Virus record (IMG/VR): IMGVR_UViG_3300017743_000002
Location: 38,381 to 102,380 of that record
Direction: 5' to 3' (one strand)
Origin: a virus
Length of the DNA: 64,000 bases
Below, one piece after another: positions 2,603 to 34,800 of this stretch. The notes under the pieces are model-generated. The model worked only from the letters and a program-made list of their open reading frames with translations, did no database searches and was not told the origin of the DNA. The first letter of the stretch is position 1. The number at the start of each line of letters is the position of its first letter. The position numbers were made by a program, and so were the translations under genes.

Positions 2603-2606
2603 TCCT

Positions 2607-11929: not shown

Positions 11930-11940
11930 AATGGTTATCC

Positions 11941-14211: not shown

Positions 14212-14295
14212 TGTGTTTTTATCCTATAATAATATATCAATATACGATATAATACATCGTATATAAATATAAGTTAATTTTGATTTCCTAAAATT

Positions 14296-16053: not shown

Positions 16054-16079
16054 TTTATTTACTTTATGTTATAATCTAA

Positions 16080-16110
16080 CTAAGATACAAAAAAATTTTG
16101 ATATATCCTA
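16080..16110 (-). promoter_or_regulatory. Putative host-type (Bacteroidota-like) promoter upstream of portal
   Basis: TAGGATATATCAAAATTTTTTTGTATCTTAG aligns without gaps to three other copies (27931, 44109, 44370). Confidence 0.5.
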
Positions 16111-16116
16111 ATTTTA

Positions 16117-16524: not shown

Positions 16525-16573
16525 GCTTAATTCCTATAATTAACCTATACTATATAAATATAAAATTTTTATT

Positions 16574-18157
16574 TTATAACCATTTAGTTAAATCTTCAAC
16601 ATCATCACCAACATTCATTTGCCAAGGATTTTCCTCATTATCATTACCACCATATATCCCACTATAAGTATGAGATGAGATACCATCAATCGCTCTTTTA
16701 GTTAAATCGATACCTTCCTGTCTTAATCGCAAAGCAGTATCTCTAACCCACAACGAAATTGCTAAACTCATTGTTAAATCATCATTATAACCCCTCATAG
16801 CTTCAGCTCTACCATGCATCCATATAAATGTGAATAATTCATCAATAGTTCTAACTGAACGTATTATAATTGATTTCTCTCTAACATACTCTTCTAACTT
16901 AGAAATAATCAAAGGTCTAGTTCTTGAAGTAGTTGAAAATCCAGCTACCATACTTTTATCTTGAGAACGATATCTATTTGAGTGTTGATGTTCTATATCT
17001 ACATATTTTAAATCCTTACTCATGTAATATAAGTTAGGATAATTTCTATCAATAACTTGTTGAATAGTTGCCCAACCGATATTTGCGTTTTCAATAACCA
17101 ACAATGCGTTGTTATATTCAGTTGATAGAGATACTAAGAAATTACCAAAATCTTTGGTATCTAACTTACCTCTATATTCAGCTACTTGTTCCGATGCTTC
17201 AACATCAATAACGTGAGCAGCAGAGTAATCCGAAGAATCACCTCTAGCAACATCCGCTACAACTATATAAGTTTTTGTATAATCAGGAAATTGCCATTTC
17301 CATAAGTTTCCGTCAAAACCACCCCTTTCAACTGGTTCTTGTACATAAGTTTCTTTGTAAAATTGAAGTATTTGTGGGTCAATAACCGAATCACCAGAAG
17401 ATACAAAATCACAATCACATTCTTGTGCTGCTCCTTTTGGTCCTAATAGAGTTTCTTGCTCATCTCTCCAACTTTGGTCTCTTTCGGGATGAACACTCCA
17501 ATGTAATCTAATATTATTAAATCCATTTGTACCATCTTCAGAACCTACCCAAGTTTTGTGAAAGAAGTTACCTACACCATTTGGAGTAGATAAAATAATT
17601 GCATTACCACCCGTTGATAATGTAGATTGAGCCGATACCCAAATCTCTTCAATCTTATCAATGAATGCCGCTTCATCAAATACCAAAAGGGATAATGCTT
17701 CAGAACGTCCAGCATCTCCAGCAGCTGAAGTTGCTTTTATTTGGGAACCATTTGAATATCTTAAAGATAGTTTGTTATCTTCAACTGTTGTTAGTTTTAA
17801 CCAAGATGGTAGATAGTGATTCATTACCCTAACCTTAGTTACTAAGTTCTTTGCTACTTCTTGCTTTGTTGCAATTACCAAACAATTAAAATCATCATTG
17901 AATAACATTTTCCACAAAGAAAATCCTGCAGTTAATGTTGATATACCAGTTTGTCTGGATTTAAGAATAACATTATATCTATGATTTTTAAAATCAACTA
18001 ATGTTTCTTCTTGAAAAGGATATAAGTGAAAAGGAATCTTACCCCTAACAGGATGTTGAATCATACAATACTTTCGCATGAAGTAAATAGGGTCAGATGC
18101 ACACTTTTTGTACTCTACCGCTATAATTTCTTTTAATGATGCCTTTTTTTTAGCCAA
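16574..18157 (-). CDS. terL: Terminase large subunit (T4 gp17-like)
   Basis: Walker A KSRQTGIST, Walker B LLVFDEAAF, coupling motif STPNG, nuclease motifs ADVARG..SDYSA and NDDLTMS. TTG start. No intein seen. Confidence 0.96.
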   Translation of the reverse strand: MAKKKASLKEIIAVEYKKCASDPIYFMRKYCMIQHPVRGKIPFHLYPFQEETLVDFKNHRYNVILKSRQTGISTLTAGFSLWKMLFNDDFNCLVIATKQEVAKNLVTKVRVMNHYLPSWLKLTTVEDNKLSLRYSNGSQIKATSAAGDAGRSEALSLLVFDEAAFIDKIEEIWVSAQSTLSTGGNAIILSTPNGVGNFFHKTWVGSEDGTNGFNNIRLHWSVHPERDQSWRDEQETLLGPKGAAQECDCDFVSSGDSVIDPQILQFYKETYVQEPVERGGFDGNLWKWQFPDYTKTYIVVADVARGDSSDYSAAHVIDVEASEQVAEYRGKLDTKDFGNFLVSLSTEYNNALLVIENANIGWATIQQVIDRNYPNLYYMSKDLKYVDIEHQHSNRYRSQDKSMVAGFSTTSRTRPLIISKLEEYVREKSIIIRSVRTIDELFTFIWMHGRAEAMRGYNDDLTMSLAISLWVRDTALRLRQEGIDLTKRAIDGISSHTYSGIYGGNDNEENPWQMNVGDDVEDLTKWL

Positions 18158-18164
18158 ACTAAAT

Positions 18165-18848
18165 TTATTTTTTTCCTATCTTCCAATACATACCACCAGT
18201 AATAAATGGTGCTAATTGTGAGGTATTAGAGTTATTCTGAATACCTAAACCTAATTGAAATAAATTATTCTTTTTATTTTTTAGGATTAACCCAGCTCCA
18301 ACATTACTGATTATATCTTCTTTGTTGAAACCACCATTTAATCCCCAATAAAATTCATTCTTTGGTAATTCTTTCACAATCGTTGTATTATAAACAGTTG
18401 GTATCTTAAAAAACCAATCTATTTCTCTAGATTCAATTGAGTTTTGTGAAATGACATCAGTTAGAATACCAAAGCCTAAATCTCCATTTGGTTTGTTACC
18501 TAATGAATCAGTAACTACATCTGGGAAATCATATGTTAAATTTAATGTATCTTTAACTGTTACTTTTGAAAAGTAATCTTTGATAATTGCAAGTGAATCT
18601 ACATCTACTGGTATCTCCACTTCTTTAATTACTTCTTTTGTAATATACTTTGGTACATACTTTGTTACCTTAACTTCTTTTTCTACATATATGGTATCTG
18701 TTTTTTGTTCTAACAGTTCGTAATCTTTACCATCTACGTTTATTATTTCTTTTTCTTCTTCTTCACCACCACAACTTCTTAATAACAATACCACACATAG
18801 TATCATTATCATTATTGTTTTTAAATCAAATTTCTTTAACAAGTTCAT
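18165..18848 (-). CDS. Predicted lipoprotein, spanin-like candidate
   Basis: Hydrophobic signal with a lipobox-like LLRSC, a DTIYV/KEVIKEV stalk, and C-terminal amphipathic beta strands ending GGMYWKIGKK. Confidence 0.5.
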   Translation of the reverse strand: MNLLKKFDLKTIMIMILCVVLLLRSCGGEEEEKEIINVDGKDYELLEQKTDTIYVEKEVKVTKYVPKYITKEVIKEVEIPVDVDSLAIIKDYFSKVTVKDTLNLTYDFPDVVTDSLGNKPNGDLGFGILTDVISQNSIESREIDWFFKIPTVYNTTIVKELPKNEFYWGLNGGFNKEDIISNVGAGLILKNKKNNLFQLGLGIQNNSNTSQLAPFITGGMYWKIGKK

Positions 18849-19497
18849 AATTCATAGGTTTTAACTTTTCGTAGGCAGCATTTCTTTTTTCTATAACATC
18901 GATAAGTTCTTTTCTACCATTATCAATATCAGCTTCTATTTGTTTTTTTAGATTTTGAACATCTTCGTTTGATGACCACTTTTCAATAGAACCATCATCA
19001 TTTACATATTTATGAATATTAGTAACTTCATTTAATGCTTGGTTCCATTTTTCTAAAACATCGGTTCCATATGCTGCCATATTAGAGTATATCTTATAAT
19101 CCTCATACTCTTTCCATAATCCATCGACTTTTATTTGCGTTTCTCTTTCAGCTAAACAAGTTGCACAAAATCCAGTTTTATTTATTAATTTTTTATCTGC
19201 GGCTGAATACTTTTTGTTTTTGCTATCATCTCCCTTACACTTAGTTTGTTCTGCTAAGTATTTTCTTACTTTACTAAGTTCATTAGATAATTTAGATTGT
19301 TTTACCTTACCATATGATTTTTGCTCATAAACAACACCATTTTCTTCCCAAATATCACCAACTTCTCGTTTTGTTGTTTCTTTGATATCCGATAAAGATA
19401 TTTGACTATCTTTTTGGTATTCACCGGTTTGAATCATATTTACCAACTTTCTACGAGTTGGGTGCATATATTTTTTATTGAATTTTTTCTCAGCCAT
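18826..19497 (-). CDS. Hypothetical protein
   Basis: 223 aa with REVGDIWEE, a CATC partial Zn site and a coiled-coil C-terminus. Late box TACTTATA at 19523-19530. Confidence 0.55.
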   Translation of the reverse strand: MAEKKFNKKYMHPTRRKLVNMIQTGEYQKDSQISLSDIKETTKREVGDIWEENGVVYEQKSYGKVKQSKLSNELSKVRKYLAEQTKCKGDDSKNKKYSAADKKLINKTGFCATCLAERETQIKVDGLWKEYEDYKIYSNMAAYGTDVLEKWNQALNEVTNIHKYVNDDGSIEKWSSNEDVQNLKKQIEADIDNGRKELIDVIEKRNAAYEKLKPMNYELVKEI

Positions 19498-19542
19498 ATT
19501 TTGTAACTTATATATTCATATATATAAGTATTGGGTTTTTTA

Positions 19543-22500
19543 CTATTCGTAAAATAAACCGAGTATTTGATTAAGGGGTGCAAATGTTCCTGTTAGTTTG
19601 AAAGTCTTTCCACCATATACAAATACGATTCCTTCGTTTGGAACTATTTTATTCTTTCCTCCGATAGAAGTTAATCTTTCCAATTCTAATTTTAGTTTTT
19701 TTACTTTCTTAACATCACCTAATTTTTGAACATCTTTTATTGTCTTGTCCAATCTTTTTTTCATATCCCTAACTGCCTTATCAGGATTTACAGTTAGTGC
19801 TGAACTCATAAATGAAAGTACTTCAGCCCCTAAACCTAAGAAGATATTTTCAAATGGTCTTATATTATCCTTAGCCATCTTAGCGTGGTCATTCTTATCA
19901 ATTCCCTTTGCCCATTCTAATGTTTTTTCATCAGATAAATTTTTCTTATCCAATCTAAATGATTTATCGTAGAATGCCCATCTCTTAACTAACCCCATTA
20001 GAGTTTTGTTATCTAATTTAGATGGTGATTTCTTATTTACAAAATCCATCCAAAAAGCTTGATGGTAATCAGCGATTCCATCATTATCTTTTAATTTAAA
20101 TTTCTTTTGTAATTTTGATATTTGTGAATTATACTTTCCTTTAGTTGATGAAAGATTTTTTGATTTTGGTAATTGAACAACTGGTGGTCCTTGAATCGTA
20201 TATGCTGATTGGACTTGTTGATTAACTTGTTTAATCATACCAGCTAATATTCTTGCGGCGTCTTGGTTTTCACCAATAGCAACACCATCTTCATTATACT
20301 CCATTGTTCCGTGGAATACTAATAGTGCTTGTCCGTAAGGTATTACATTAACAGAAGTTGGATAGATTACCTCCAAATTCATAAAACATGCTCCTCCTTT
20401 GAAAATCTTATCTCTCTGCTTTTCACTCAACTTAGATATTGCCTTCGTTAAATCTTTCATTGCGAAGTTATACGCCTTTTCCAATTCTCCTCTTCCAGCA
20501 AACTTCACAGCCACCCCATTAATATCTAATGCACCTTCTCCTTTGTTTTTCAAATGTCCTTTATTTCTCGCTGCAACCAATCTCCCATCTCTCCAACTAA
20601 CTGCCAATGCTTGTCCATCTGTTTTTTCTCTAGTGAGTTCTAAATTACCCTCTAAAGCTTTTTGTACTATATCTTTTAATTGTCCAAAAGTTAAATTGAT
20701 TTCTGTATCGAATGGGTGATTCATATGTCCATAAGCACCTCCTTCCAAAATCAATGATTCAGTAATACCACCACCTAATGCGTATGGTTCATTATACTGA
20801 AGTTTTTCTTTATCAAATTTCTTTCTTAGTTTTTTGATTTCTTTTTCATGTTTATCCATCCACTTTTGGTCTGGATATCCATGCCCTAATCCTTCTTTAA
20901 CTCTTTTATCCTTTATTAACATCTTTAATAATTCACCACCCTTACCTTTGATATCTTTATGTACCATTCTTGAAGTTGGGCCTTGAAATAATTTGATGTA
21001 AAGTTTTTCTAAGTATTCACCCTTTTGTTTATCTGATAGATTCTTAAATACTTTACTTATTTCTCCTCTTCTTTTGTAAACATATGATTTTAAATCATCA
21101 TAGTAAAAGGAGTTGATTTTTTCAGTTACAGGTTCATAACCTTTTTTCTTAGTATTTTTATCGTTTGCTTGATGACCGGGGCTTTTACCATCATCATCAA
21201 AATCAATTGTATCTGGCTCAGCCATTGAACCTCTCTTTGCATATGATGAATATGTATGGTGGTCATTGAAATCCTTTTCAGCTTCTGAAGAAGGTTTACC
21301 ACTTTTTACAGCTTTAAACTTATCAGTAACTTTAGTTGGTAATGATTCAAATTTATATTCTGGGTCTGATGTTTTAAAATCATCCTTTCTCATTATGGTT
21401 TTAGCGATTACTTTATTCGCTTGTTTCATAAATGGAATATTGATTTTACTTCTACTATCTTTTGCTACAATCTGTCCATATAAATCTAAGAAGTTTACAA
21501 AATCTTTTTTCTTCTTTCCTAATCTTTTAAAGAATCCAATTAATTCAGCTTGTGATATTTCTTTTTTATTTCTTGGGTCAGTTAACCTATCGAAGAAATG
21601 TTTATCAGTTAGAACTATATCTACTGGATTAAGTTGTTTATCAGCATACTTATCAATCTTCACCAAATCAGCCATTGGGATTTCATTAACAGTACCTTCT
21701 TTAACAATTCTAAAGTTTACTACCTTTCTACCATTTATAGTTGGCATCCCATGCTCATCTTTACCAATTGTTTTGATGATTGTTTTTTTGTTTTTAAATC
21801 TACCAGTTAGAATTGTATCTCCTATTTTTACTGGAAGTTTTATATCTTCACTTACCACATTACCTTGTGGTTTCTTTTCGTTAGATAAATCTTTAGTTGA
21901 TTGTTTTTTATCATCCTTTAATTCATCAAAATTTATTATAGAATACCCTACCAATCCAGCAATTCTAGTTACATGTCTAAACCATTTATTATAAGCATCA
22001 GTACCATAAAAATCCTTTTGGTTAGTTGCGGTTGTTTTACCAGCAACACCTGCGGGATATGGAGTTACTGCTTTTACAGGTCCTTCAGGATAAATTGGAT
22101 GTGGGTCTATATCAGTAAGTTCATCACTCATAATTTGTGATAAAACAGTATATCCTACCGCCTCTGCTCTTTTCTTAGAAACTCTATCGAATGTATTATA
22201 ATTTGGAAAAATATAATTAGGTCCATCATCAACTGCAGTTTTACCCATAGTGGCTGATGCCTCCTTAATTAAATCATTTCCATAACTAATTAACCAATTT
22301 TCTAATACTTCTTTTGAAATAGTAAAATCTTCGTTTAATGTATTTGTTATAAAATCAAATATCTTTTTATCAAACTTTGGATATGCTCTTTTTGTAAAAA
22401 AGTTTTTCTTATCTTCTTCTGAACCTGATGATAATCCCTTACGAACTTCAGTTCCACTTACACCACCAGCACCTTCAGGTGCTACATAAACGTATCCCTT

Positions 22501-22932
22501 ATCTTCATATCCTTCGAAATCTAAGTTATCTTTGTAAGGGGTAAAGAACTTACCTCTACTACCTAATCTACCAGCATCTTTCTTACCCACAACAGTAATG
22601 AATGCAGTTGTATCTTTATCAAACTTCGTTAGTACCTCAGTTGGTACATACGGATTTTTTACTTGAACAATTTTGTTTTTTGGAATCCCAAACATTTTGG
22701 TAATAATCATTACCTTTTCTTTGAAGTTGAATGGGGATTTATTATTATCGGTTTTATTGGATGTACCGATATACACATTATTCTTTCCGAACTTTTTTAC
22801 TAAGTGGGAATAGGTTGCGTAATGACCTTTATGAAAAGGTTGAAAGCGGCCAGCATAGACTACAACTTTGTTGTCTACACCCTCCGCTTCTCCTAAAATA
22901 CTTTCTATTAAGAATTGAGATAATTCGTTCAT
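19543..22932 (-). CDS. Multidomain protein: N-terminal HxGH nucleotidyltransferase (cytidylyltransferase/NMNAT-like), small middle domains, C-terminal ATP-dependent RNA-ligase-like domain
   Basis: YAGRFQPFHKGH (aa 26-37) and VSGTEVR. Ligase-superfamily motif I EKTDG (K770), a motif III-like NLEVI, motif IV EGIVF (E1100) and motif V KTFKLTG. Confidence 0.7.
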   Translation of the reverse strand: MNELSQFLIESILGEAEGVDNKVVVYAGRFQPFHKGHYATYSHLVKKFGKNNVYIGTSNKTDNNKSPFNFKEKVMIITKMFGIPKNKIVQVKNPYVPTEVLTKFDKDTTAFITVVGKKDAGRLGSRGKFFTPYKDNLDFEGYEDKGYVYVAPEGAGGVSGTEVRKGLSSGSEEDKKNFFTKRAYPKFDKKIFDFITNTLNEDFTISKEVLENWLISYGNDLIKEASATMGKTAVDDGPNYIFPNYNTFDRVSKKRAEAVGYTVLSQIMSDELTDIDPHPIYPEGPVKAVTPYPAGVAGKTTATNQKDFYGTDAYNKWFRHVTRIAGLVGYSIINFDELKDDKKQSTKDLSNEKKPQGNVVSEDIKLPVKIGDTILTGRFKNKKTIIKTIGKDEHGMPTINGRKVVNFRIVKEGTVNEIPMADLVKIDKYADKQLNPVDIVLTDKHFFDRLTDPRNKKEISQAELIGFFKRLGKKKKDFVNFLDLYGQIVAKDSRSKINIPFMKQANKVIAKTIMRKDDFKTSDPEYKFESLPTKVTDKFKAVKSGKPSSEAEKDFNDHHTYSSYAKRGSMAEPDTIDFDDDGKSPGHQANDKNTKKKGYEPVTEKINSFYYDDLKSYVYKRRGEISKVFKNLSDKQKGEYLEKLYIKLFQGPTSRMVHKDIKGKGGELLKMLIKDKRVKEGLGHGYPDQKWMDKHEKEIKKLRKKFDKEKLQYNEPYALGGGITESLILEGGAYGHMNHPFDTEINLTFGQLKDIVQKALEGNLELTREKTDGQALAVSWRDGRLVAARNKGHLKNKGEGALDINGVAVKFAGRGELEKAYNFAMKDLTKAISKLSEKQRDKIFKGGACFMNLEVIYPTSVNVIPYGQALLVFHGTMEYNEDGVAIGENQDAARILAGMIKQVNQQVQSAYTIQGPPVVQLPKSKNLSSTKGKYNSQISKLQKKFKLKDNDGIADYHQAFWMDFVNKKSPSKLDNKTLMGLVKRWAFYDKSFRLDKKNLSDEKTLEWAKGIDKNDHAKMAKDNIRPFENIFLGLGAEVLSFMSSALTVNPDKAVRDMKKRLDKTIKDVQKLGDVKKVKKLKLELERLTSIGGKNKIVPNEGIVFVYGGKTFKLTGTFAPLNQILGLFYE

Positions 22933-22990
22933 CTGATATAGTACTATTTCCTTTGTACTATATAAATATAGAATTTATTACTTTTACCAA

Positions 22991-23395
22991 TTATACTTTA
23001 ACAAATGGAGAATCTACAACTTCGCCACCGTCAACGCCGTTGTTTCCACCTCGTCCACCTTGTTGTGCCTGTTGTTCCATTTGTTCTTTAATAGCTGGGT
23101 TATAAGTAACTGTACCCTTTTCTAAATCTAATTGACCTCTTGGGTAATCTCTTTCTAACTTATTCAACTCTTTTCTAAGCTCAGCGTTAACTTCTTTGAA
23201 GTTAGTTTCAGCTTGAGTGAATGCCTCATCAATTCTTTCTAAATCAGAATGTAATTGATTTTTTCTAATATGCAACTCACCAATTTGACCCATTAGTTGT
23301 TGTAACTGTCCATTATATCCTTTGATTTCTTTGACCTTATCTTCTGATAATTCAGCCGTTCTTAAATCAATCGATGTTTTTTGTTCTTTTGCCAT
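22991..23395 (-). CDS. Coiled-coil protein, paralog of 27964..28242
   Basis: Helical hairpin ending YPRGQLDLEKGTVT. Late box at 23432-23439. Confidence 0.6.
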   Translation of the reverse strand: MAKEQKTSIDLRTAELSEDKVKEIKGYNGQLQQLMGQIGELHIRKNQLHSDLERIDEAFTQAETNFKEVNAELRKELNKLERDYPRGQLDLEKGTVTYNPAIKEQMEQQAQQGGRGGNNGVDGGEVVDSPFVKV

Positions 23396-23445
23396 ATGAC
23401 TATAAATTAATTAATTTGTTTTGAATTCGTATATAAATATATAAA

Positions 23446-24201
23446 TTATAAGTTTTCGTAATCTATTGTTGTAACACCTCTCTTTTGTACTACTTGTGCT
23501 GAACAACGATTTCCGAACTGTATTGATTTTGGAATATCATCAGTATCTAATAACATTTTAACAAACCCTGCTACAAATGTATCACCAGCTCCTGAGATAT
23601 CCATTATCTCTACTTTTTCGGTTGGATATGATATACCTTTGTACATACATCCATCCTTATCTAATGTAATTATTAGCTTTTCTAAAATCCAATCGTTTTT
23701 TTCAATAAATTCTTTATTATTTTCAAACTCTGAACGATTTAGTTTTATGAATCGTAAATCCTTACACCAATTACCCAATTGCTTCTTTGTATCACAAATT
23801 ACATTTGGATGTTTGAATCCGATATATGCTATATCTTCTTCGGTTAGGAATCCCTTATTGTAATCAGAAACTACAATCATTTGGTATTCCCAATAATCTA
23901 TATCGGTAAGTAGTTTGTTACCTATCCTATCGATATTTTTTTCTTCATCAATTCTTAATAATAAAGTGTTTGATGATTCGTGAATATGTCTTGTCTTTGT
24001 AATGGGAGATTTTTGATGATGAAAATCCACATCAATACTCAATGATGTTAAGTTAGCTAATACATTCATTCCCATTCCACCATTGAAAACTTCTCTTTTT
24101 GGAATAAATACAGGAGCAGGTCCTTCGGGTGAAAGACGGGGTGTATCTCCATAAATGAAGATATCATCACATTGTTCTCCTATTAATAAAACTTTACTCA
24201 T
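23446..24201 (-). CDS. hldA: D-glycero-beta-D-manno-heptose-7-phosphate kinase (RfaE/HldE domain I, PfkB family)
   Basis: RLSPEGPAPV, GGMGMNV, TKTR, LLRIDEE, VSDYNKGFL and the PfkB anion hole DISGAGDTF. Confidence 0.9.
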   Translation of the reverse strand: MSKVLLIGEQCDDIFIYGDTPRLSPEGPAPVFIPKREVFNGGMGMNVLANLTSLSIDVDFHHQKSPITKTRHIHESSNTLLLRIDEEKNIDRIGNKLLTDIDYWEYQMIVVSDYNKGFLTEEDIAYIGFKHPNVICDTKKQLGNWCKDLRFIKLNRSEFENNKEFIEKNDWILEKLIITLDKDGCMYKGISYPTEKVEIMDISGAGDTFVAGFVKMLLDTDDIPKSIQFGNRCSAQVVQKRGVTTIDYENL

Positions 24202-24577
24202 CTAATAATCCAGTTGTTGAGAATCCTTCTACTTTAGGGAAGTATTCTATTTTCTTAGCATGTTTTCTACCAATAATACCTTTCGTTTTGTATTCTTCTC
24301 CAATTACAAAAATATCTGGTTGGTATTCTTTTATAGCATCAGATAATTCTTTATCGGTATCAAATACCACAATACCATTAACTCCATTAATTTGAAGTAG
24401 ATTATATATTCTTTGTTTTTCATTATGAAAAGGTCTATTATCTCCCTTTGATTCTTTTACTCTTCTATCAGAATCAATTCCTATCATTAATTTTTCTCCC
24501 AATGATTTTGCATGTGCAATTAATTGAAAGTGTCCGTGATGAAGAACATCGAAACAACCATTAATCCAAATCTTCAT
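24194..24577 (-). CDS. hldC: Heptose-1-phosphate adenylyltransferase (RfaE/HldE domain II)
   Basis: NGCFDVLHHGH, GIDSD..V...KGDNRPF and C-terminal GFSTT. Overlaps the kinase gene. Confidence 0.88.
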   Translation of the reverse strand: MKIWINGCFDVLHHGHFQLIAHAKSLGEKLMIGIDSDRRVKESKGDNRPFHNEKQRIYNLLQINGVNGIVVFDTDKELSDAIKEYQPDIFVIGEEYKTKGIIGRKHAKKIEYFPKVEGFSTTGLLDE

Positions 24578-25717
24578 TTATAAAAACTTTTTTAATTCAC
24601 TTATTACCATATCTGAAGTAATCTCCTTAGTACACTCAAATTGTCTGTTAGTACCCTTATGGTCAGGACACCAATCCCAATCACCAGCATCTAATCCTAA
24701 TCGGTTAAAACATCCACTACACTTTCCTTTAGGTGAACCGATTCTTACACAATCTTTCATTTCTGCCCAAAGCTCTGAGAATCCACTAATCAAAACTGTC
24801 TTTGTTCCTAACGCCCAACTTAACCAACTCAATCCACTACCAATACCAATGAATGCTTTTGATTTAGCCATTTCATCCATAACTGATTCTAATGGTCCTT
24901 CTGGGTGTTTTATTATTCCCTTTGGGTGTGTGTTACCCATATAGTTATCACCCTCTTTTGAAAGTAATTTAACTTTATAGCCTTTATCATTTAACCAATC
25001 TACTACATCCTGCCAACCAGTTGGGTTGTTCCAATATTTTGGTTGAGCAGTTCCATGTATTGCTATTGTGATTAGTTTATCATCTTTCTCAACATTTCTA
25101 TCTTTTAACTTTGGTTTTATTTCTTTATATTCCAATCCTAATATGTCAGTTGCCATTTTTTGCATAGTAACTTCTTTTGGGTCTGTTGGATTTTTAAAGT
25201 AATCAATACTACCATCATTATAAAATAATCCCAAATTGTACATAGCATATAAATTAGGAACAACATCACCTGGCTTCACAAACTCAATATTAGGATATTG
25301 TTTTTTTAACATATCATTATGAAATGTAGATGTAACTATTTTACAATTATGTTGTTTACCAAACTCCTCAACATATGGAAACCATGCCAATGTATCTCCC
25401 AATGCTTTTGAATCTAGTGCAATATAAACTCGCTTATTAGTTGCATTATAATTTTTTTCAACTACAAGTTTATCGTTTTGCCAAACTCTAATTGTCCAAT
25501 CTACGAAATATCTAATATTAGATTTAGCCCAATGATTTGTTTTTAGTTCAGTTTCATAATGTATAAAATTTGTTTTTTTATCTATAAATTCAACTCTATA
25601 TGTTAAATTCTCTGAACCTAATATTTCAACACATGCACCATTTACATAATCTACTTTTACATAATCTTTTATTTCAACTATGTTATTATTATTTCTTTTT
25701 ATATTATCGTAAATCAT
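24578..25717 (-). CDS. Protein O-heptosyltransferase, Aah/TibC (autotransporter strand-loop-strand) family
   Basis: N-terminal beta domain ending RYFVDWTIRVW, catalytic ALGDTLAWFPY, FIGIGSGLSWLSW, and a four-Cys iron finger CSGC...WCPDH...FECTK. Likely ATG at 25717 overlaps the upstream TGA (ATGA); the ORF track starts at 25723. Confidence 0.88.
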   Translation of the reverse strand: MIYDNIKRNNNNIVEIKDYVKVDYVNGACVEILGSENLTYRVEFIDKKTNFIHYETELKTNHWAKSNIRYFVDWTIRVWQNDKLVVEKNYNATNKRVYIALDSKALGDTLAWFPYVEEFGKQHNCKIVTSTFHNDMLKKQYPNIEFVKPGDVVPNLYAMYNLGLFYNDGSIDYFKNPTDPKEVTMQKMATDILGLEYKEIKPKLKDRNVEKDDKLITIAIHGTAQPKYWNNPTGWQDVVDWLNDKGYKVKLLSKEGDNYMGNTHPKGIIKHPEGPLESVMDEMAKSKAFIGIGSGLSWLSWALGTKTVLISGFSELWAEMKDCVRIGSPKGKCSGCFNRLGLDAGDWDWCPDHKGTNRQFECTKEITSDMVISELKKFL

Positions 25718-27897
25718 TTCCAACTTTTATTTGTATTATCTAATAATGATAATCCTTCAGCTTGTTTTGAAAAAGGATAGTTTGTTGTGTATCTTAATCT
25801 TTTGTGATGATAGAATACATGATTGTACCATAAATCAGCTACATCCCATTCACAATCTTCAATCCTATCCATATACCATTGTTTATCTCTATTTGGTATT
25901 AAATAAGCATGAGCCCAATCTTGATTGTAATCAGTTTTTCTAAATGTTTCATCAACTTCCCATCTAGTCCAAGATGGATTATCTCCAAAACTAATAAATG
26001 GAACATCATCTTTTTCTGAGATAAAACATGCTTTGTTAACTACATCTACAAAATCTATTAGATTAGAATAAATAAACGCATCTGCCTCAAATATCAAAGT
26101 ATAATCGTAATTATCGGTATCTATTTCTTTTAATGCATTTATATGAGCTAAATAACAACCATAATGTCTGCCTGTAATGTTTCCTATACCTTGCTCACCT
26201 TTATAGATTGGAGTATCGGATATATCATCAGGTCTCCTACAAAACTCTGAAGGTGGTGTTCCATTATACACTTCATTAACCATAGGTTTGTAATCAAATC
26301 CCCAACGTTGAAGTTGTTTTAGTGATTTCTCACTAATTCTCTCTCTAATATCATTTGGGTTTGTCATCATATGGATAATTTGAATACGAGGTCTTTTTCT
26401 ATACCAAACCCAACCCTCTTTTGTTTCTACTTGTCCATAAAAATATTCATCAACTGCTTTAGTTAATCCCTCAAACAAATTAGTTCCAAAATCATCTCCA
26501 CCAATTATACCACCTGGTTTAACTTTATAAAACCAATTGTTTATATCATTTTTAACATCATCATATTCATGTCCAGCATCAACCATTATGAAATCTTGTG
26601 AATTGTTTAGGAAAAGATTTTTAGCATTATCTGATGTATCCTTTATTATTTGTATATCATCGAAGTTATTTGATATAATTGAATTATTAGAAAACTCAGT
26701 ATATAAATCATTATCAAATGGTTTTAACATTGTTCTATGTAATAAGTTATCATATCCAACCGAACCCTTAAATGTATCAATAGCAGTAAATCTTACATTC
26801 TTATTTGTTTCTTTTAGTTTAGTTGCAAAATAGTTAGTTGATTTTCCCATCCAAGAACCAAGCTCTATTACGTTTGAATTATTTGGTAATTTTTCAATTA
26901 CTTCATCATATAATTTTTGATAAGAGAACCAACCAGGAATTTCATTGAACTCTGGTTGTAAGGTTTCTAATAATAAATTTTTTGTTTTATGAATATCATC
27001 ATCGATATAAGTTACCAAATCAGTATTATCATATGTATCTAAAAATGTATGTAATCTTCTAAATATAGATGGTAAGCCGTATGAAAGGGCTTCTTTGATT
27101 GAAAGTGGATTAAGTTCTAATGTTGAACTAAAGTAAAATAAATCAGATGCTTTATAGAATTTATCAGTATCATTTCGTTCACCCCATACAACACAATTTT
27201 TAGGTTTGAAATCCATAAGTGGTTTCCAATAATCTTCAAAATTAATTGCTTGATTTCCTACAAAGTGAAATTTAATTTTATACTTCTCTAATAATCTAGC
27301 TACATCAAATATTTCACTTTGGTTTTTACCAACTGAAAATAAACCAACCATAAGAACATGTTTCCAATCTTTTTCAAAACCTAGTTCTTCTTTGGCTTTA
27401 TCTTTATCATATTTAAAATCTTCAATAGGATATTGCCAAACTTTAGTATCTATTCCCAAATGTTCGAATCTTTGTCTACTCCACTCTGATACTAAAATGT
27501 ATCTATCTGGATGATATTTAATTTTATCCGGATTTGTAAAAGAACCATGTGTTGAACAAACTATATCAAACTTTCTCTTTTTGTTTCCAAAAATTTTATC
27601 TAATGTTGAATGGTCTATGAAATGTTCTGGTATTTCAGTAAAATGAATAATATCGGGCTTTATATCATCTATAAGCTTTATAAATGAATTTCCTTTATCT
27701 TCATATAAAGTATGAAGAGTTACTAAATCACCGATTTGATTTTTTTGAACTACAAATACACCACCACTATGGTCATTGTATTCTACAACTTGAATATCAA
27801 ACTCATTATTAAAAGTTTGTATTTGTTTAAGAAGATATTGTGGCATTCCACCCGTTGAAAGATGAGATGCTACATAAAGTAGTTTTTTCTTTACCAT
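25714..27897 (-). CDS. Three-domain fusion: GT4-like glycosyltransferase + class I SAM methyltransferase + GT25-like glycosyltransferase
   Basis: HLSTGGMPQY...KNQ...ELNPLSIKEA (GT-B). ELGSWMGKS...VDAGHEY...KPGGIIGGDD (Methyltransf_24-like). YGCYLAH...LIFEADA...AHAYLI...DLWY (GT25-like). Confidence 0.8.
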   Translation of the reverse strand: MVKKKLLYVASHLSTGGMPQYLLKQIQTFNNEFDIQVVEYNDHSGGVFVVQKNQIGDLVTLHTLYEDKGNSFIKLIDDIKPDIIHFTEIPEHFIDHSTLDKIFGNKKRKFDIVCSTHGSFTNPDKIKYHPDRYILVSEWSRQRFEHLGIDTKVWQYPIEDFKYDKDKAKEELGFEKDWKHVLMVGLFSVGKNQSEIFDVARLLEKYKIKFHFVGNQAINFEDYWKPLMDFKPKNCVVWGERNDTDKFYKASDLFYFSSTLELNPLSIKEALSYGLPSIFRRLHTFLDTYDNTDLVTYIDDDIHKTKNLLLETLQPEFNEIPGWFSYQKLYDEVIEKLPNNSNVIELGSWMGKSTNYFATKLKETNKNVRFTAIDTFKGSVGYDNLLHRTMLKPFDNDLYTEFSNNSIISNNFDDIQIIKDTSDNAKNLFLNNSQDFIMVDAGHEYDDVKNDINNWFYKVKPGGIIGGDDFGTNLFEGLTKAVDEYFYGQVETKEGWVWYRKRPRIQIIHMMTNPNDIRERISEKSLKQLQRWGFDYKPMVNEVYNGTPPSEFCRRPDDISDTPIYKGEQGIGNITGRHYGCYLAHINALKEIDTDNYDYTLIFEADAFIYSNLIDFVDVVNKACFISEKDDVPFISFGDNPSWTRWEVDETFRKTDYNQDWAHAYLIPNRDKQWYMDRIEDCEWDVADLWYNHVFYHHKRLRYTTNYPFSKQAEGLSLLDNTNKSWK

Positions 27898-27930
27898 AAC
27901 CTATTTAGATGCTTAGATGCACTTTACAAT

Positions 27931-27962
27931 GTAAAGATACGAAAATAATTTTAATTATCCAA
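27931..27962 (-). promoter_or_regulatory. Putative host-type (Bacteroidota-like) promoter of the glycosylation operon
   Basis: TTGGATAATTAAAATTATTTTCGTATCTTTAC, near-identical to 44109-44140 and 44370-44400. Confidence 0.65.
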
Positions 27963-27963
27963 A

Positions 27964-28242
27964 TTATTCTTCAACAGTTATCGTACCTTTATCTAGGTCA
28001 ATCTGTCCATTCTTGTACTTTTTATCTAATTCTCCCAATTTTTCTTCTAATTCGTATATGTACTTATCATTCATTGCTCCGTACTTTTCCTCATTATCAG
28101 AAATCTCATTTAGTTTTTTATTGAGAGCTCTTTTCTGAACAGCCATTTGTCCTAAAAAGATTACAATCTTATCAGTTTCATCTCTAAGGAATTTTAATCT
28201 TTCTAAAATTTCCTTATCTAAGTTTTCTGTTTTTTGTGCCAT
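27964..28242 (-). CDS. Coiled-coil protein, paralog of 22991..23395
   Basis: Ends YKNGQIDLDKGTIT. Late box TACTTATA at 28261-28268. Confidence 0.6.
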   Translation of the reverse strand: MAQKTENLDKEILERLKFLRDETDKIVIFLGQMAVQKRALNKKLNEISDNEEKYGAMNDKYIYELEEKLGELDKKYKNGQIDLDKGTITVEE

Positions 28243-28296
28243 TGTATTTCTTTGTTTATATATAAGTATATATAAGTTTTGTTTTACGAAAAATTA

Positions 28297-28563
28297 TTAC
28301 CAATTTGGTGGTGTATCTAAAGATGATGTAGGCCAGTATGCTTTTAACTCATCAAGTGTTGAAAATGAATCTAAAGTAATGGTAGATGGAAAATTTCTTA
28401 AAGTATTTTTTTGTAAAGTTATAGAATGTTGAGTATCCGTATCATACGTTTCTAATGCACGCATAAATTCTATATCCAATTGTTTGAATTTTCGTTCTCT
28501 ATGTTCACGAAAAACTTTTAAAAAGTTTTCCAATGCTTTTGTTTTATCTAATGACCAACTCAT
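28297..28563 (-). CDS. Tail fibre assembly chaperone
   Basis: R..R...F..LDIEFMRALE...K..LRNFP...ELKAYWP pattern, downstream of the giant fibre gene. Confidence 0.7.
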   Translation of the reverse strand: MSWSLDKTKALENFLKVFREHRERKFKQLDIEFMRALETYDTDTQHSITLQKNTLRNFPSTITLDSFSTLDELKAYWPTSSLDTPPNW

Positions 28564-28853
28564 AATGATGTATTTTCTGTTAAAAACTCATCCCAACTTT
28601 GAGTAAATGAATTTTGTAAACCAATACCATCATTGTTGGTGTAATCCCAAGCATAATTATCAAAATCAGGTGGGAATTGGGATTCTGATATTATTTGGTA
28701 TCTACAATTTTCAGAAACTGATTTTTTAGCACACCAATTAATTCTATTTCTATAAACATCATTTGATTCACTTACTTTTTGTTCGGTAATTGAACCAATT
28801 CCCGTATCAGAAAGTGATTGTGAAGTTTCAAATATAAAATACAACTTATCCAT
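28560..28853 (-). CDS. Small tail-fibre-associated protein
   Basis: YQIISESQFPPDFDNYAWDY motif. Located between the fibre and the chaperone. Confidence 0.5.
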   Translation of the reverse strand: MDKLYFIFETSQSLSDTGIGSITEQKVSESNDVYRNRINWCAKKSVSENCRYQIISESQFPPDFDNYAWDYTNNDGIGLQNSFTQSWDEFLTENTSL

Positions 28854-28870
28854 AATTTTTCTTTTAATTA

Positions 28871-31800
28871 TTAATCTGAGAATAAAACAAAATATACAAT
28901 ATTTGGGTCTCTATCCTGGTCTCCGTTATTATCTTTAACATTTATTTCAACATTAGAAGTTTTTACCTTTACACCAGTATTAAAAGAGAACTCATTATCT
29001 CCCAAATTTGTTCCAGGTCCATTATCAGTACTACCATTTCTACCATATCCATTTGCAAATCCCAATCCACTTGATAAACTAAAACCAGTTGTACTAGTAA
29101 GTGTTACCGTAAATTCTCCCTTTGATGCCCTAGTTACACTCGAAACATTATGGTCATTGTAAGGTCCTTCAATATTTCCAGATGTACTTACACCAAAATA
29201 ACATGCTGCAACTAATTGCATTGTACCAATTGGAGTTCCATTTAATTCTCGCATCCACCCCTCTCTAAAATAGTTAGAGCTGGCACCTAAGTTCCATCCA
29301 GATGTATCTCCATATGCAGCGTGAGGTGTAGGTTTAATATTACCAGCTATTGAAAGAGCCATTTTATCATTAGTGCTTGTACCACCTGATATTTGATTTC
29401 TTGATTCTATTTTTATAGCACCATCAACTACTTCTACTAATTCAACTTCAGTTGCATCTTGGTCTCTTCTATGTAGTCTAGTGAATCTACCTGTACCAGA
29501 TACTACTTGTATTCCCGCAGGAAGTATTTCAATAAAATTATTATTTTTTTGAATACTAATAGTATCTTGGTATGGAACAACAGTACTTTTGCTTCCATTG
29601 TTTAAATAACCCTTTGCACTGGTGTTATCTGAATCAAAGACAAAATTGGATACACCATAAGTTGTAGTTGTAGTTGCACTAGAATTAGCAGATACTGTTA
29701 CACTTGTTGATGCTCTTGACCTAAGATTAATTCTAAATCTAACTTTATAATTACCAGTATTAGGTATTTCTACATCGAAATTGCTAGTACCTCCAGCTAC
29801 AGTACGAAGTCCTTGATTTGACTGACCATAACTGAAATTTTGCTGATTCCATGATAAAGAACCAAATACGTTGTGAGAAATAATATTATTTGAAATATAG
29901 TTTACATAGTTTGGTACAGTAAAAGTTATTACCTCTTCTTCTTTTTCAATTTTTCTAATATTAGTTATAGCAACTTTCTTTTTAGAATCACCATCCTTAA
30001 CCCACAATTTTAAATGATCTTGTGTCATTGGATTGCCAGCTAATTTATATTTATATAATTCTGATACTATTATTTGACCTGAATTTTTTTGATTACCAAA
30101 CAACCAAAATTTATGAGAATCTGATACTTCAATTTCGTTACCATCAATAGTTACTTTATAAATTTCACTTACATTTGATTTTTTAATCTTAGATATTCTT
30201 GCCGATACCCACTTATCAGTATCACTATCCCATGCTAAAATTTTATCATCTAAAGTAATATCTTTTGCTAACTTTGTATTACCATCTTCTAAAGTAATTT
30301 CAGTAGTACCAACTACGGAATTAATTCCCCCACCACCACTACTTGAGGCTTGCCAAAAATAGAATGCTTCGTTAGCTCCATATACATTTAAAGCGCTTAA
30401 ATATTTGGTAGCTACTAATGTACTTGTATCATCATTCCATAATTCCAAATACTGATATATTGCTCTAGACCCATATGAATTTCCACCGAAAATTTGATTT
30501 CCACCATGAACTTGGCCTTCAACTGATGGTGAATAATTTGGTGATGGTGAATTAAATTCTCCTTCAACAATACCAGTAGCATCTAAATGCAATGATGGAT
30601 AATCAATATCAGTAAGTAAAACTGGTCCTGCATCTAATGCCACATTGGCTGAGAAAATTGAATTTTGGTCCTCACTAGCATTTTCTAAAAAACCATATTG
30701 ACTAGTAGTACTAATTCCAATCACATTTTTATAAAAATGCTGTGAGGTCGATTGTGCAAATGTAAATGTACCGCCACCAGCATCAGTCTCTGTAAATGCA
30801 TCTTGGCTTCCAATTGTTACTCTTTCAGTATATTCAGGAACACCATCATATGCAAAACCATCATTATAGATATAGGTTCTATTACCCATACCAACGTGGT
30901 TTTCACAATAGTACCAAAATTCCATTGAGGATGGGTCTCCAACTAATCCGTTACCACCAGCCCACGGAGATTCCATACTAGCAGATGGAATAATTTGAAT
31001 ATATGCACCAGCATTACCAGGATCAGCACTACTTGTTATAATTAAGAAAGGTTGCTGATATTCAGATGTAGTCAATGTTGTTGATTTATTGTATCTTCCA
31101 CCATATGTACCTATTCCATTTTCCCTCATTGAAAAACTAAATTCATGAGTATCCAATGATGAATCTGATAAATCAAAGTAGTATCCTCTATTTTGAACTG
31201 TACCACCAGTACCAGTATCTCCATATGCACTTCTTTCCAAATAAATTACTGGTGCCTCTTCTGCACCATCACCATAATCTATATAAAATTTACTATTTTG
31301 AACTGTAACTGAGGATGTTGCTGGATAATCTAAACTTTGAGTAACAAGAGATGCACTATAAATTTGGATTTCCCCTACGTTAGGGTCAAATCGTATTTCA
31401 CCATCATCATCTTGCAAGATACCACCAGTTCCATCAATTGGGTTACCATTAGAATCTAACTCACGTGGTGTAATTACCCACTGTCCTATGTTACCATCAT
31501 TAGCATCTATTGTTCCTTTTATAAATGCATCAACTGCATTTACAATACCATCTTTAGTAACGGTGAAATTATATGAACGATTATCAACTTCAGTATATTG
31601 TGTAGTTAAATCATATCCTATTTGAAGACCGGGTCCTCTTATTATTGAATTTGAACCTGTACCTAACAGTGCTGCATTTGATAATGCAATTACACCATCA
31701 TTATATATCATAAAATCTGAACCACTTACCAGTGATAATACAGGCGCAGCTGAGCCACTTGGGTATCCTATGAAGATACCATCTTCTTCAAATGATTGAG

Positions 31801-34800
31801 TTGCCTGTCCAATTGAAATAAATGGAGAAGCACTACCATTTTCAGTATCAGCGTTAAGTGATATAACAGGTTTATTATTTTCACCCGTACCAACATTTAT
31901 TGTTCTATTAGCATAAACATCTTCAGCAAAAAGGATATCAGTTGCAACTGAAGTAAATTGTGCTCCAAATATTGCGAATGCATCATCACCATCTAATTGT
32001 AATCCACCACCACCATTCATAGGTACTAAGTTTGATGCAGCACCTAAAGAAGTCCAAAGAGAGCTTGCTTGTGGGTTTGTTGTTCTTGATTGTCCAGTTA
32101 TTGAACTATTAGCCACATAATATGTATTATCAGAACCATTTGTACCTACTGGGTTAAATATGATATCATTTATAGCATAATCTTGTGTGTTTGCAACCCA
32201 ATCTCCTCTATGATAGTGTTCTATTTCCGTAGTATAAAACCTATCCCCGCTTCCATCATTATATTTAACTACATATTTTAAATCACCAGAAAGATATTCG
32301 GTTGGATTATTATAAGTGTTATTTGTACCAACTTTCCAAGCCCCAGCATATACAATACCAGATGCATCCCCATCAGCACCATCTGTACCATCTTTTACTT
32401 TGGTTAAAGTTTGTGTTGTTGTTGCTGTAAACGCATCTCCTAAAAGTCTTATACCTGAAATATTATAAGTTATGGTAACTGTATCTTCATTGTTATCCAT
32501 AGAAGTAAAATCAGCAACCGTTGCAGTAGTTGTACCACCACCACCAAAAGATGGTGTATTCATAGTAGATGCTGGACTTTGAGTAGCCGTAATTGTATAT
32601 ACACCTGTACCAGCTCCAATTGAGGATACTTTTGTTAGTGCAGTTACACCTTCAAATACTCGTATCTCCGTACCACTATTAGTATATGATGAAACCACAC
32701 CAGCAGATGAAGCTGGTAATGAGTGTGCTTGGTTTGTATTAATTACAGTAATTCCATCAACACCATCTGCTCCATCAGATATAATATAGAATGTTTCGTT
32801 TATTGTGGTTGTTTGAGAAGTAGCAGGGTCAGTAAATACTGCAGTTACTACAACATCTTTAGTATCGGTATAATTTGTATCTCCAAGAGTCATTGAAGTA
32901 CCATCCCCATCATCGGCTGTAATTGTAATTTGAGATGCACCCGTTGCAGTACCTATTTTCATTTGGTCTACTGTACCACTCCAATTTGGTGTTATTGTTA
33001 CGTTCTTTGTATATTCAGTTCCAGACGTATCATAGAAAGATGCCTGAACAGTTAATGTAGTTGGGGTATAGATATTAGTTATCGAGTCTCTTGATGTTTT
33101 TAAGTTTGATGCGATAAATGAACCACCACCTAATCCATCGGTTACATCCAATAATGTTATTGAATCTAATACCTGTGGAGTTGGGGTACTGCCATCTTTT
33201 AGTAAAAGTGTTTTAGTTCCATTAATGAAGTCTTTGTCAATGGTTGGATTATAAACTACACCATTACCAGCATCAGTAACACCAGTTTGTACAGCAAGTA
33301 ATGTATTACCATCATAAATTCGTGCATCAGTACCAGATGTTATATTAGCTACTCCATTTAAATCTGCTTTTTGAACTTGTAGTGTAATATTACCACTACT
33401 ATTTTTTATTTGAGTACCACCAGCAGTTGGAGTAATAAAGAAATTTGGCTCAGTATCCGAACCTGGTTTAACACCAAATATGTTAATTACATCACTAATT
33501 AGTTCGGTTTGGTCTTGTCCACTTAATCCACCATCAGCTACACCAACTCTAAATTGAAGAGGCATATCTGATATTGTTGTTCCACTTAAATCAATACTAC
33601 TTACAATATCATTGTTAGTATCAGAACCATCAGTAAATGTAGTTTCATCAGTAAAGTTAGTACCACCACCAGTAAATTTAAAATAAGGGTCTATGAAGTT
33701 AGATGATGATGCAAATACGTTAATTGAAGATGGTGATGGATTGTTACCATTTTGGTCATATGCAATTACAAAAGTATTAGCTGATAATGAAACAGTCTTA
33801 CCAGTTCCAGATGCAGCAGTCCAAGGACCTACTGCTGGAGGTCCATCGGTAGCATCACCACTTACATCAGATGTATGTGCTGAATTTGCTGTCCAACTTT
33901 GTCCGTTATAGATAACCAAATCATCAGCGGCATAAACTGTAGCAGTAGCCCATATACCTCTTAATGTTGGTTCTGTAGCACCAGCAGATGTTTGTCTTAT
34001 GGAACCTCTAATTGTTAAAGTTTCACCATCCCATTTTAATTGGTTATAACTTCCACCATTATTTGTACCCGTTAGTGAAAGTATCCCAGATGTACTATTG
34101 GTTCCAGCACCTGCTCCACCCATATCATTGGTTACTCCTAAGAATGCACCCGGCTGTCCGAATCCTTGAGTACCAGTTTGTCCAACCGCTATGTAAGGTT
34201 CATCCGTTCCACCAACAATTGCTATATTTGCGTTAACGTTTCCAGGAGGTGGTTCACCAACATTGATTGTATTTTTTACAAATGATTCTTCGAAGATTGC
34301 TAACTTAGCAGCAACGAAGAAATCTTGTTGACCTAAATATTGCCATCCCCCAGCATCAATATCACCTTCTTGAGTTGCAGGTGGTCCAGCAGAGTAAACA
34401 GGTTGAGCAGTATAAATACCATCATCATTACCCAATCCATCAGATTCTTCAGTATATTCTGATTTGTTTATTAATTCTTCAGTAGTTGCCCAATAGTGAA
34501 CCTCATCACTAATTTCTCTAAATACAGCATCTCTTCTTTTTTGAGTTAAATCGAATATATATGCTATTTCCTCATCCCATTCACCCCTCACAACAATACC
34601 AGGTCCAGTTGCTCCTTCAAAAACAGTTGAGAATGATTGTTGTACAAATTGTTCACCCCTACCATTTTCAAAATCAATTTTAAATACAATAAATCCTTGT
34701 GTATTTTGTTGAGGTGAATTCCAATTAGTTACAGCAGATGAACTAGCATATAATTCACCAGAAGAAGATACTATTTCTTTTGAATCTCTTAAAGTACCTT

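Follow-up and report, generated by a model that had tools for sequence, protein, structure and literature searches.

An Aah/TibC-family heptosyltransferase cassette in the virion module of marine T4-like phages and its association with proline-free collagen-like proteins

The stretch of DNA analyzed here (the window, 64,000 nucleotides of IMG/VR record IMGVR_UViG_3300017743_000002) is the 3' 64 kb of a 102,380-bp viral contig and carries, at positions 23446-27897 on the minus strand, four coupled genes organized around an Aah/TibC-family protein O-heptosyltransferase (BAHT). We propose, with a probability of about 0.7 when all acceptors are taken together, that this cassette glycosylates structural proteins of the phage itself. 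The odds are about even that the main acceptors would be collagen-like tracts of G-[S/T]-S triplets, a reading suggested by sequence comparisons of BAHT loci.

The gene arrangement given in the initial annotation was confirmed: the four open reading frames (ORFs) are read in the same direction with gaps of -10, 0 and -8 nt, and the cassette is flanked on both sides by intergenic gaps of 50-66 nt. The BAHT gene (24578-25723, minus strand) encodes a protein of 381 aa that we classify as phage-type. It scores 294.1 bits against TIGR04414 (hepto_Aah_TibC), whose curated equivalog cut-off is 200, with an alignment covering model positions 10-373, and it matches the TibC structures 4RAP and 4RB4 with an E-value of 2e-49; the N-terminal domain of TibC (PF21129) is found at 24.5 bits, under the cut-off of 27. 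The LGD motif (residues 108-110), whose Asp is catalytic and is mutated to Ala in the TibC chain of 4RB4, and the four iron-finger cysteines (Cys335, Cys338, Cys352 and Cys364) align to those of TibC, so that both the family and the retained residues initially annotated hold. Among 46 non-redundant phage homologues, G109, D110 and the four cysteines are invariant in all 46, and residue 108 is L in 37 and I in 9. Matches to GT9/lipopolysaccharide (LPS) heptosyltransferase models are weak (27-29 bits). BAHTs are cytoplasmic protein O-glycosyltransferases that use a nucleotide-sugar donor, and phage proteins fold in the cytoplasm too. No AIDA-type repeat (PF16168) was detected in the 102-kb contig, and no ORF with such an acceptor was present in 80 viral loci. 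The family is abundant in phages of marine and fresh waters, where it forms 3,863 clusters at the 90% identity level, and 'autotransporter strand-loop-strand O-heptosyltransferase' is already the name given to these proteins by the automatic annotation of JGI.

Directly upstream of the BAHT gene, a 727-aa protein (25714-27897, minus strand) fuses a GT4-type glycosyltransferase (GT) domain of GT-B fold (residues ~1-320), an S-adenosylmethionine-dependent methyltransferase domain (~340-490) and a GT25-like GT-A domain (~500-727), in agreement with the fusion first annotated. The GT4 domain exceeds its Pfam cut-off (Glycos_transf_1, 39.7 bits against 26.4), the methyltransferase domain matches Methyltransf_24 at 62 bits, and the C-terminus stays under the cut-off of GT25 (PF01755, 20.6 bits against 24). 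Searched by sequence against PDB chains, the fusion protein gave no match. In an AlphaFold2 model of the whole protein (pLDDT 79.6), the N-terminal GT-B fold matches BshA, WaaG and MshA (Foldseek E 1e-10 to 3e-12). The C-terminal domain was folded separately, as the fold search with the whole fusion was swamped by the GT4 domain; it adopts a GT-A fold (pLDDT 87.5) with COLGALT1 (Foldseek E 2e-9; VIA Z 13.7-14.6) and Mimivirus R655 (Z 13.8) as best matches, the generic GT-A enzyme GnT-I scoring nearly as high (Z 13.5). The likeness to COLGALT1, the human galactosyltransferase of collagen hydroxylysine, would fit a collagen-type substrate; as to acceptor specificity it carries little weight, given the score of GnT-I. 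The contig contains no further GT4 or GT2 gene.

The two remaining genes resemble those of ADP-heptose synthesis. A nucleotidyltransferase of 127 aa (24194-24577, minus strand) has rfaE_dom_II (TIGR02199) as top family, at 98.5 bits for an equivalog cut-off of 181.5, followed by a TagD-type model at 60.5; it also matches phrog_7878 (124 bits) and carries an HHGH (HxGH) motif at residue 13. Its PDB matches are generic cytidylyltransferases, including 5X9Q, listed as a putative cytidylyltransferase, which we take to be HldC. We presume it to be a D-glycero-beta-D-manno-heptose-1-phosphate adenylyltransferase. A kinase of the PfkB type (251 aa; 23446-24201, minus strand) has rfaE_dom_I (TIGR02198) as top family, at 111 bits for a cut-off of 345, with ribokinase at 46 bits, and matches phrog_8133 at 251 bits. 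Its best PDB match is HldA (4E84), to which it aligns at both the N- and the C-terminus; it is thus a compact enzyme with an internal deletion rather than a truncated one, and the GG (residue 41) and DISGAGD (residue 201) motifs are kept. It is presumed to be a heptose-7-phosphate 1-kinase. For both enzymes, a specificity for heptose is suggested by family rank and linkage. Because the two genes are translationally coupled to the BAHT gene, heptose is the most coherent donor sugar, and it is this linkage that suggests ADP-heptose as the substrate of the BAHT.

The phage-made heptose donor of the initial annotation stands in part. RfaE domains I and II are the top families and the genes are coupled to the BAHT gene, but the pair is optional: HldA and HldC are found in only 26 of 81 BAHT loci and are missing from some members of the clade of the window (L018, L020-L025). 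The further proposal that GmhA and GmhB come from elsewhere was borne out in favor of supply by the host. No match to gmhA, gmhB or hldD was found across the 102-kb contig, which is ~51% complete, the rest of the genome of this phage lying outside. A gmhA-like gene occurs in one of 28 BAHT-positive records and in none of the seven that are at least 90% complete; HldC-like genes occur in 8 of the 28, from several unrelated lineages, and are lacking in 20. Five complete or rated-100%-complete records (G019, G022, G025, G069 and Microcystis phage Mel-JY01) encode neither a gmhA-like nor an HldC-like gene. As GmhA and GmhB are missing even from complete relatives, the phages presumably depend on host precursors, and HldA and HldC are best interpreted as optional enzymes that boost the two ATP-consuming steps.

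BAHT relatives are encoded by at least 162 IMG/VR contigs; 80 loci were fetched and their ORFs clustered de novo. In 73 of 81 loci, the BAHT gene has that of its GT partner (GT4/methyltransferase family) immediately upstream. In Mel-JY01, a single ORF of 1226 aa fuses GT4 with BAHT, and in several IMG/VR lineages the BAHT has an N-terminal GT4 or methyltransferase domain. In the window, which comes from a widespread marine phage, the cassette is placed between a giant ORF of 3357 aa and T4-type genes for terminase and portal; in other lineages, it is placed between genes for collagen-like tail fibres and those for tail sheath, tail tube, and baseplate hub and wedge. Throughout the lineages examined, BAHT and GT partner are located in the virion module, next either to terminase and portal or to sheath, tube, baseplate and fibre genes, which supports a role directed at the virion. 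In one lineage (L058, L060, L075, L076, L078, L080 and L081), tandem BAHT duplicates of ~316 and ~400 aa are present just upstream of the tail sheath gene.

Beyond the clade of the window, many BAHT loci adjoin a giant ORF made of G-X-Y repeats in which X is S or T and Y is S (or N/T), with 26-45% serine plus threonine (S+T) and little proline. The tract ORF directly adjoins the BAHT gene in L042, L043, L053, L067/L074 and L351, and lies ~1.3 kb downstream of it in L325. The contig analyzed here has two giant ORFs of this type, at contig positions 1-9375 (131 triplets with X = S/T and Y = S) and 11506-22260 (332 triplets), 16-38 kb upstream of the window. Together they give 30 Pfam Collagen (PF01391) matches over the cut-off, and they are almost without proline and charge.

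The association was assessed with a DNA pattern of six S/T triplets, the reversed pattern serving as control. Of the 42 entire records from which the BAHT loci were drawn, 23 matched the pattern and none the reversed control. Among BAHT-positive records of at least 50 kb, 14 of 15 matched the strict pattern, and all 15 carry tracts when that of Mel-JY01, found by a looser pattern and by translation, is included. At the level of BAHT clusters (60% identity), tracts are present in 7 of 11, the other four consisting of short fragments only. Conversely, when tract-bearing IMG/VR records were sampled arbitrarily, a BAHT was encoded in 18 of 38 (over the curated cut-off in 17), as compared to none of 40 records with G-P-X collagen (Fisher p = 1.6e-7, shared ancestry uncorrected); in the phage collection, a BAHT was found in 4 of 50,697 records. 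The BAHT-positive record LR756501 has 1,133 pattern matches, one of them ~6 kb from the BAHT gene, and no tracts were found in the BAHT-negative relatives immuto, P-SSM4 and LR756508.

Mel-JY01 (PP395634.1, L082) had been considered as a counter-example and was dropped as such: the strict pattern, with WCN at X, is blind to its AGY codons, and a tract is present. An unannotated plus-strand frame (nt 2-3049) of at least 1016 aa, open at the start of the record, has 606 aa in G-X-Y tracts and an S+T content of 40%, and lies 1.7 kb upstream of the gene for the GT-BAHT fusion. It probably represents a fibre gene that was mis-annotated and that spans the arbitrary start of the genome. In the deposited annotation, minus-strand 'hypothetical' coding sequences (1-651 and 739-2298) are drawn over this frame.

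The same pairing was seen among homologues from cellular records. In 50 such loci, the 14 whose BAHT is at least 38% identical had the GT partner in 11 cases and tracts in 7, and the 36 at or below 36% identity (Acetobacteraceae and others) had no tracts (p = 3e-5) and a GT partner in L357 only. The 14 are contigs of metagenome-assembled genomes (MAGs) with inconsistent taxonomy, one of them carrying terminase and baseplate genes. On two contigs of bacterial-type context (54-58% GC, with the housekeeping neighbors mnmA, purB and secD), a small ORF consisting of a pure (GSS)17 stretch followed by a coiled coil (L320:1242-1940 and L322:8318-9016) is located ~1 kb upstream of a phage-type BAHT gene, on the same strand; near-identical sequence occurs in MAG bins assigned to Oxalobacteraceae, Burkholderiales and Bradyrhizobium. 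Separately, low-GC contigs with phage-type BAHT cassettes (L321, L323, L324-L331 and L351) were binned in unrelated taxa (Rickettsiaceae, Staphylococcaceae, Pacearchaeota and others); L323, from CAILRJ/CAIWBA-type MAG contigs, is on a 254-kb contig where a terminase and a baseplate wedge gene are present. These low-GC contigs are likely phage contamination of the bins.

In a quick maximum-likelihood tree (IQ-TREE), built from sequences other than E. coli Aah and TibC, 28 classical bacterial BAHTs formed one well-supported clade without tracts (SH-aLRT 99), and all viral as well as all 21 tract-linked BAHTs were placed opposite to it. No autotransporter was found within 6 kb of the classical BAHT gene in Acetobacter tropicalis or Acidisphaera, and the term classical therefore refers to the position in the tree and to the absence of phage partners.

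Combined, these data lead us to propose a cytoplasmic O-glycosylation module of the phage that would act on its own fibre proteins late in infection. Host GmhA and GmhB would supply the isomerase and phosphatase steps, and the HldA-like kinase and HldC-like adenylyltransferase would boost the formation of ADP-heptose from host heptose-7-phosphate. The BAHT, of the TibC/Aah type, would attach heptose to Ser/Thr hydroxyls, as its family and catalytic residues suggest, and the GT4/methyltransferase/GT25-like fusion, judging from its folds, would extend and methylate the glycan. The likeliest acceptors would be the Ser and Thr residues of long proline-free, charge-poor G-[S/T]-S tracts, which in this phage would be those of the contig ORFs 1-9375 and 11506-22260. 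According to the summary in PMC11923368, collagen-like helices are usually stabilized by proline/hydroxyproline (Pro/Hyp) or by Lys-Glu/Asp salt bridges; Ac-(Gly-Pro-Thr)10 is a random coil that forms a triple helix upon galactosylation of its threonines, and Thr-O-glycans are borne by BclA's collagen-like region and by the cuticle collagen of vent worms. Dense O-glycosylation could plausibly stabilize a helix devoid of both Pro/Hyp and such salt bridges, and it may also shield the fibre. A broader proposal, which we hold to be less likely than not, is that phage-type BAHTs represent an unrecognized and widespread way of building fibres, in which Gly/Ser/Thr helices might become foldable and stable only after dense O-heptosylation in the cytoplasm, with extension and methylation, by a phage enzyme set devoted to it; the sugar would then replace proline, hydroxyproline and salt bridges. 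The same pairing is also present in some bacteria.

Several points weigh against glycosylation of the tracts. The glycan itself is predicted from genes, and the scores of the HldA-like and HldC-like proteins under the equivalog cut-offs leave heptose as the presumed rather than the established sugar. Known acceptors of BAHTs are beta-helical autotransporter repeats and not triple helices. In the clade of the window, the tract ORFs are more than 40 kb away from the cassette, and the giant ORF adjacent to it is tract-free. The statistical association was not corrected for ancestry; many of the positive records may come from related aquatic myoviruses, and the G-P-X control records probably belong to other types of phage. 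The BAHT of LR756504 (33% identity) is a true exception, with no tracts in its record, and about half of the tract-bearing records have no BAHT, most of these being fragments and two being at least 93% complete. Lastly, the COLGALT1 match may only mirror which GT25 structures have been solved.

The same cassette could instead have the adjacent 3357-aa protein, or other non-collagen virion proteins of the capsid or tail, as its acceptor, an alternative that we hold to be unlikely. This Ser/Thr/Asn/Gly-rich giant protein (28871-38944, minus strand; S+T 20.2%, almost no Cys) is encoded 973 nt upstream of the cassette, and the two are syntenic at every locus of the clade whose flank reaches it. 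The initial annotation had placed the cassette ~1 kb downstream of a giant fibre and its chaperones, and the fibre was read as the intended target. The distance is correct, but the identity of the fibre is backed by no family, and the supposed chaperones are small ORFs with no informative family. The sole domain matches of the giant protein are CBM_5_12 (residues 1665-1708) and a sub-threshold Hint domain (2883-3025; 29 bits against 35.8); no PHROG, no fibre family and no known BAHT acceptor motif matched it, no G-X-Y tracts were found in it, and its Atlas look-alikes are viral hypothetical proteins only. An acceptor outside the collagen class is also favored by Mel-JY01, where a 'structural protein' gene lies between the collagen-like ORF and the gene for the GT-BAHT fusion, by the tract-free LR756504, and by the glycans described on capsid and tail-tube subunits of mycobacteriophages (Freeman 2023, as cited in PMC12619734). 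Against it, the giant ORF family is confined to the clade of the window, whereas the link between BAHT and tracts recurs in at least seven BAHT lineages and in a bacterial context. The comparative signal points to the G-[S/T]-S tracts of other ORFs; the giant protein is retained as a secondary candidate acceptor, and of the initial claim that the phage glycosylates its own virion, the virion-module context holds in every lineage while the adjacent 3357-aa target is unsupported. In Acidisphaera sp. S103, the gene directly after a classical BAHT gene (L335:11171-12715) encodes a Hint_2-domain protein (129 bits), and with the Hint-like domain of the giant protein this makes a link between BAHTs and Hint domains possible.

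The two other explanations concern the sugar and the side of the phage-host pair that is modified. It is improbable that the BAHT transfers a sugar other than heptose, the two small enzymes making another activated compound or perturbing the ADP-heptose pools of the host. Such a role would be compatible with their scores under the equivalog cut-offs and the proximity of the nucleotidyltransferase to generic cytidylyltransferases, with the absence of the pair from 55 of 81 loci and of the HldC-like gene from 20 of 28 records, and with a phage-encoded GmhA in only 1 of 28. RfaE domains I and II are nevertheless clearly top-ranked (111 against 46 bits and 98.5 against 60.5 bits), the kinase finds its best PDB match in HldA 4E84, both genes show translational coupling to that of an enzyme from a heptosyltransferase family, and HldC-like genes recur in several unrelated BAHT-positive lineages. 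That the cassette modifies the host surface (LPS core, adhesins or other proteins), against superinfection or against re-adsorption of progeny to lysed cells, appears highly improbable. ADP-heptose is the donor for the LPS core, the GT9/LPS heptosyltransferase models do give weak matches of 27-29 bits, and phages are well known to encode GTs that change the surface antigens of their hosts (PMC12619734). However, the protein-heptosyltransferase model outscores the LPS heptosyltransferase model tenfold (294 against 27 bits), the cassette is, in all lineages, embedded among the late structural genes of T4-like phages, and it co-occurs with a specific class of phage fibre while no acceptor of the autotransporter type is encoded. 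Modification of phage structural proteins remains the reading that we prefer.

The contig has a GC content of ~30%, a CheckV completeness of ~51% and all its genes on a single strand. In the sense of transcription, the cassette is followed by an ORF for a 134-aa coiled-coil protein, an ORF for a 1129-aa protein and two small ORFs, and then by the genes for a T4-type large terminase, a gp20-type portal and a gp21-type prohead protease. On its 5' side, three small ORFs precede it, then the gene for the 3357-aa protein and, farther upstream, those for a truncated nucleotide-sugar dehydrogenase, an SbcD-SbcC fusion and a primase. Judged by the terminase (~55% identity), the nearest relatives in culture are Mel-JY01 and the 'immuto' phages of Flavobacterium. 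Near-identical DNA recurs across seawater, marine and viral metagenomes of many studies from 2014 to 2025. In four seawater metatranscriptome libraries, contigs span all four cassette genes at 90-99% identity; carry-over of DNA is possible and strand and level are absent, and these contigs are not counted as proof of expression. The single promoter initially assigned to the cassette could not be read from the sequence. Scans for sigma-70 promoters and terminators over positions 22800-29000 gave nothing over chance (38 sigma-70-like sites observed, 40 expected), and convincing enrichment of T4-type late-promoter motifs (TATAAATA and variants) was not found ahead of gene starts, nor did a clear late-promoter consensus emerge.

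The cassette is bracketed by a pair of paralogues. The upstream member is a small coiled-coil protein of 92 aa (27964-28242, minus strand) and the downstream member is the 134-aa protein (22991-23395, minus strand), which has a weak spanin-like/coiled-coil match. They belong to one cluster of 62 members from 33 loci, with two per locus that always flank the cassette, and have in common the C-terminal motif GQ[IL]DL[DE]KGT[IV]T. Paralogues placed in this way on both sides could be a sign that the cassette was inserted as a module. The 1129-aa protein (19543-22932, minus strand) is kept between cassette and terminase, including in Mel-JY01, where it is annotated 'cytidylyltransferase like protein'; its long C-terminal part varies in length (874-1383 aa in relatives). 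It was considered as an additional sugar-nucleotide enzyme and dropped; its N-terminus is weakly like nicotinamide mononucleotide (NMN) adenylyltransferase. The truncated nucleotide-sugar dehydrogenase (276 aa; 39195-40025, minus strand) scores 201.6 against TIGR03026 (cut-off 189.8) and covers model positions 66-298 of 413 only. Both the initial Rossmann segment and the C-terminal domain are missing, and the protein is either a relic or a pared-down enzyme that supplies the glycan pathway. The SbcD-SbcC fusion is a single ORF of 1043 aa (40028-43159, minus strand) that joins an SbcD-like phosphoesterase (Metallophos, residues 5-191) to an SbcC-like ATPase; SbcD and SbcC are normally two separate subunits.

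To our knowledge, BAHTs had been described solely as enzymes that modify a few autotransporter adhesins of pathogenic bacteria. The present analysis shows the family to be abundant in marine and freshwater phages, with a new set of partners and probably a new class of acceptor. No prior description of a phage BAHT, of phage heptosylation or of glycosylated collagen-like phage fibres was found in a literature search whose scope did not extend to subscription journals. The novelty lies in the phage BAHT subfamily, with its fixed GT partners, its optional donor module and its association with proline-free collagen-like proteins, and not in the gene call as such. If the link to the tracts is true, it would explain how long proline-free, uncharged G-S/T-S helices, which are common in viral metagenomes, can exist; it would extend the glycosylation of phage virions beyond mycobacteriophages, and it would provide a cytoplasmic system for the glycosylation of designed collagen-like materials. 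Mel-JY01 is in culture and has the same pairing, which makes the hypothesis directly testable.

The closest known systems are the Aah/AIDA-I and TibC/TibA pairs of E. coli, to which the phage BAHT is related by family (TIGR04414), catalytic Asp and four iron-binding cysteines. It differs from Aah and TibC in its location in the virion module of lytic-type marine myoviruses, with no autotransporter or AIDA repeat, in its pairing or fusion with GT4/methyltransferase/GT25 partners, in its placement apart from the clade of 28 classical enzymes, and in its link to G-[S/T]-S collagen-like proteins instead of beta-helical adhesins. The small pair has HldA and HldC (the domains of HldE/RfaE) as best matches, with the GG, DxSGAGD and HxGH motifs kept and the genes adjacent and coupled; unlike those enzymes, the phage proteins are shorter (251 and 127 aa) and score below equivalog level, the kinase is shortened by an internal deletion, no GmhA, GmhB or HldD is encoded, and the pair is optional. 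Glycosylation of mycobacteriophage virions (Freeman 2023, as cited in PMC12619734) likewise involves phage GTs acting on phage structural proteins; there, as far as that citation describes, the enzyme families, the sugar and the host group are others and the acceptors are C-termini of capsid and tail-tube subunits, whereas the system described here is known from its genes. Among glycosylated collagens, BclA, with Thr-O-glycans on its GPT repeats, and the Riftia cuticle collagen, with Thr-O-galactose, are also G-X-Y proteins, in which, following the account in PMC11923368, dense O-glycans can replace hydroxyproline. In animals and Mimivirus, hydroxylysine of collagen is glycosylated by GT25 enzymes of the COLGALT1 type, and COLGALT1 and R655 are the best matches of the C-terminal GT domain of the cassette. 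The phage tracts are distinguished from all these collagens by being nearly free of proline and charge (X = S/T, Y = S), and by a proposed first sugar, heptose, that would be added by a BAHT encoded by the phage.

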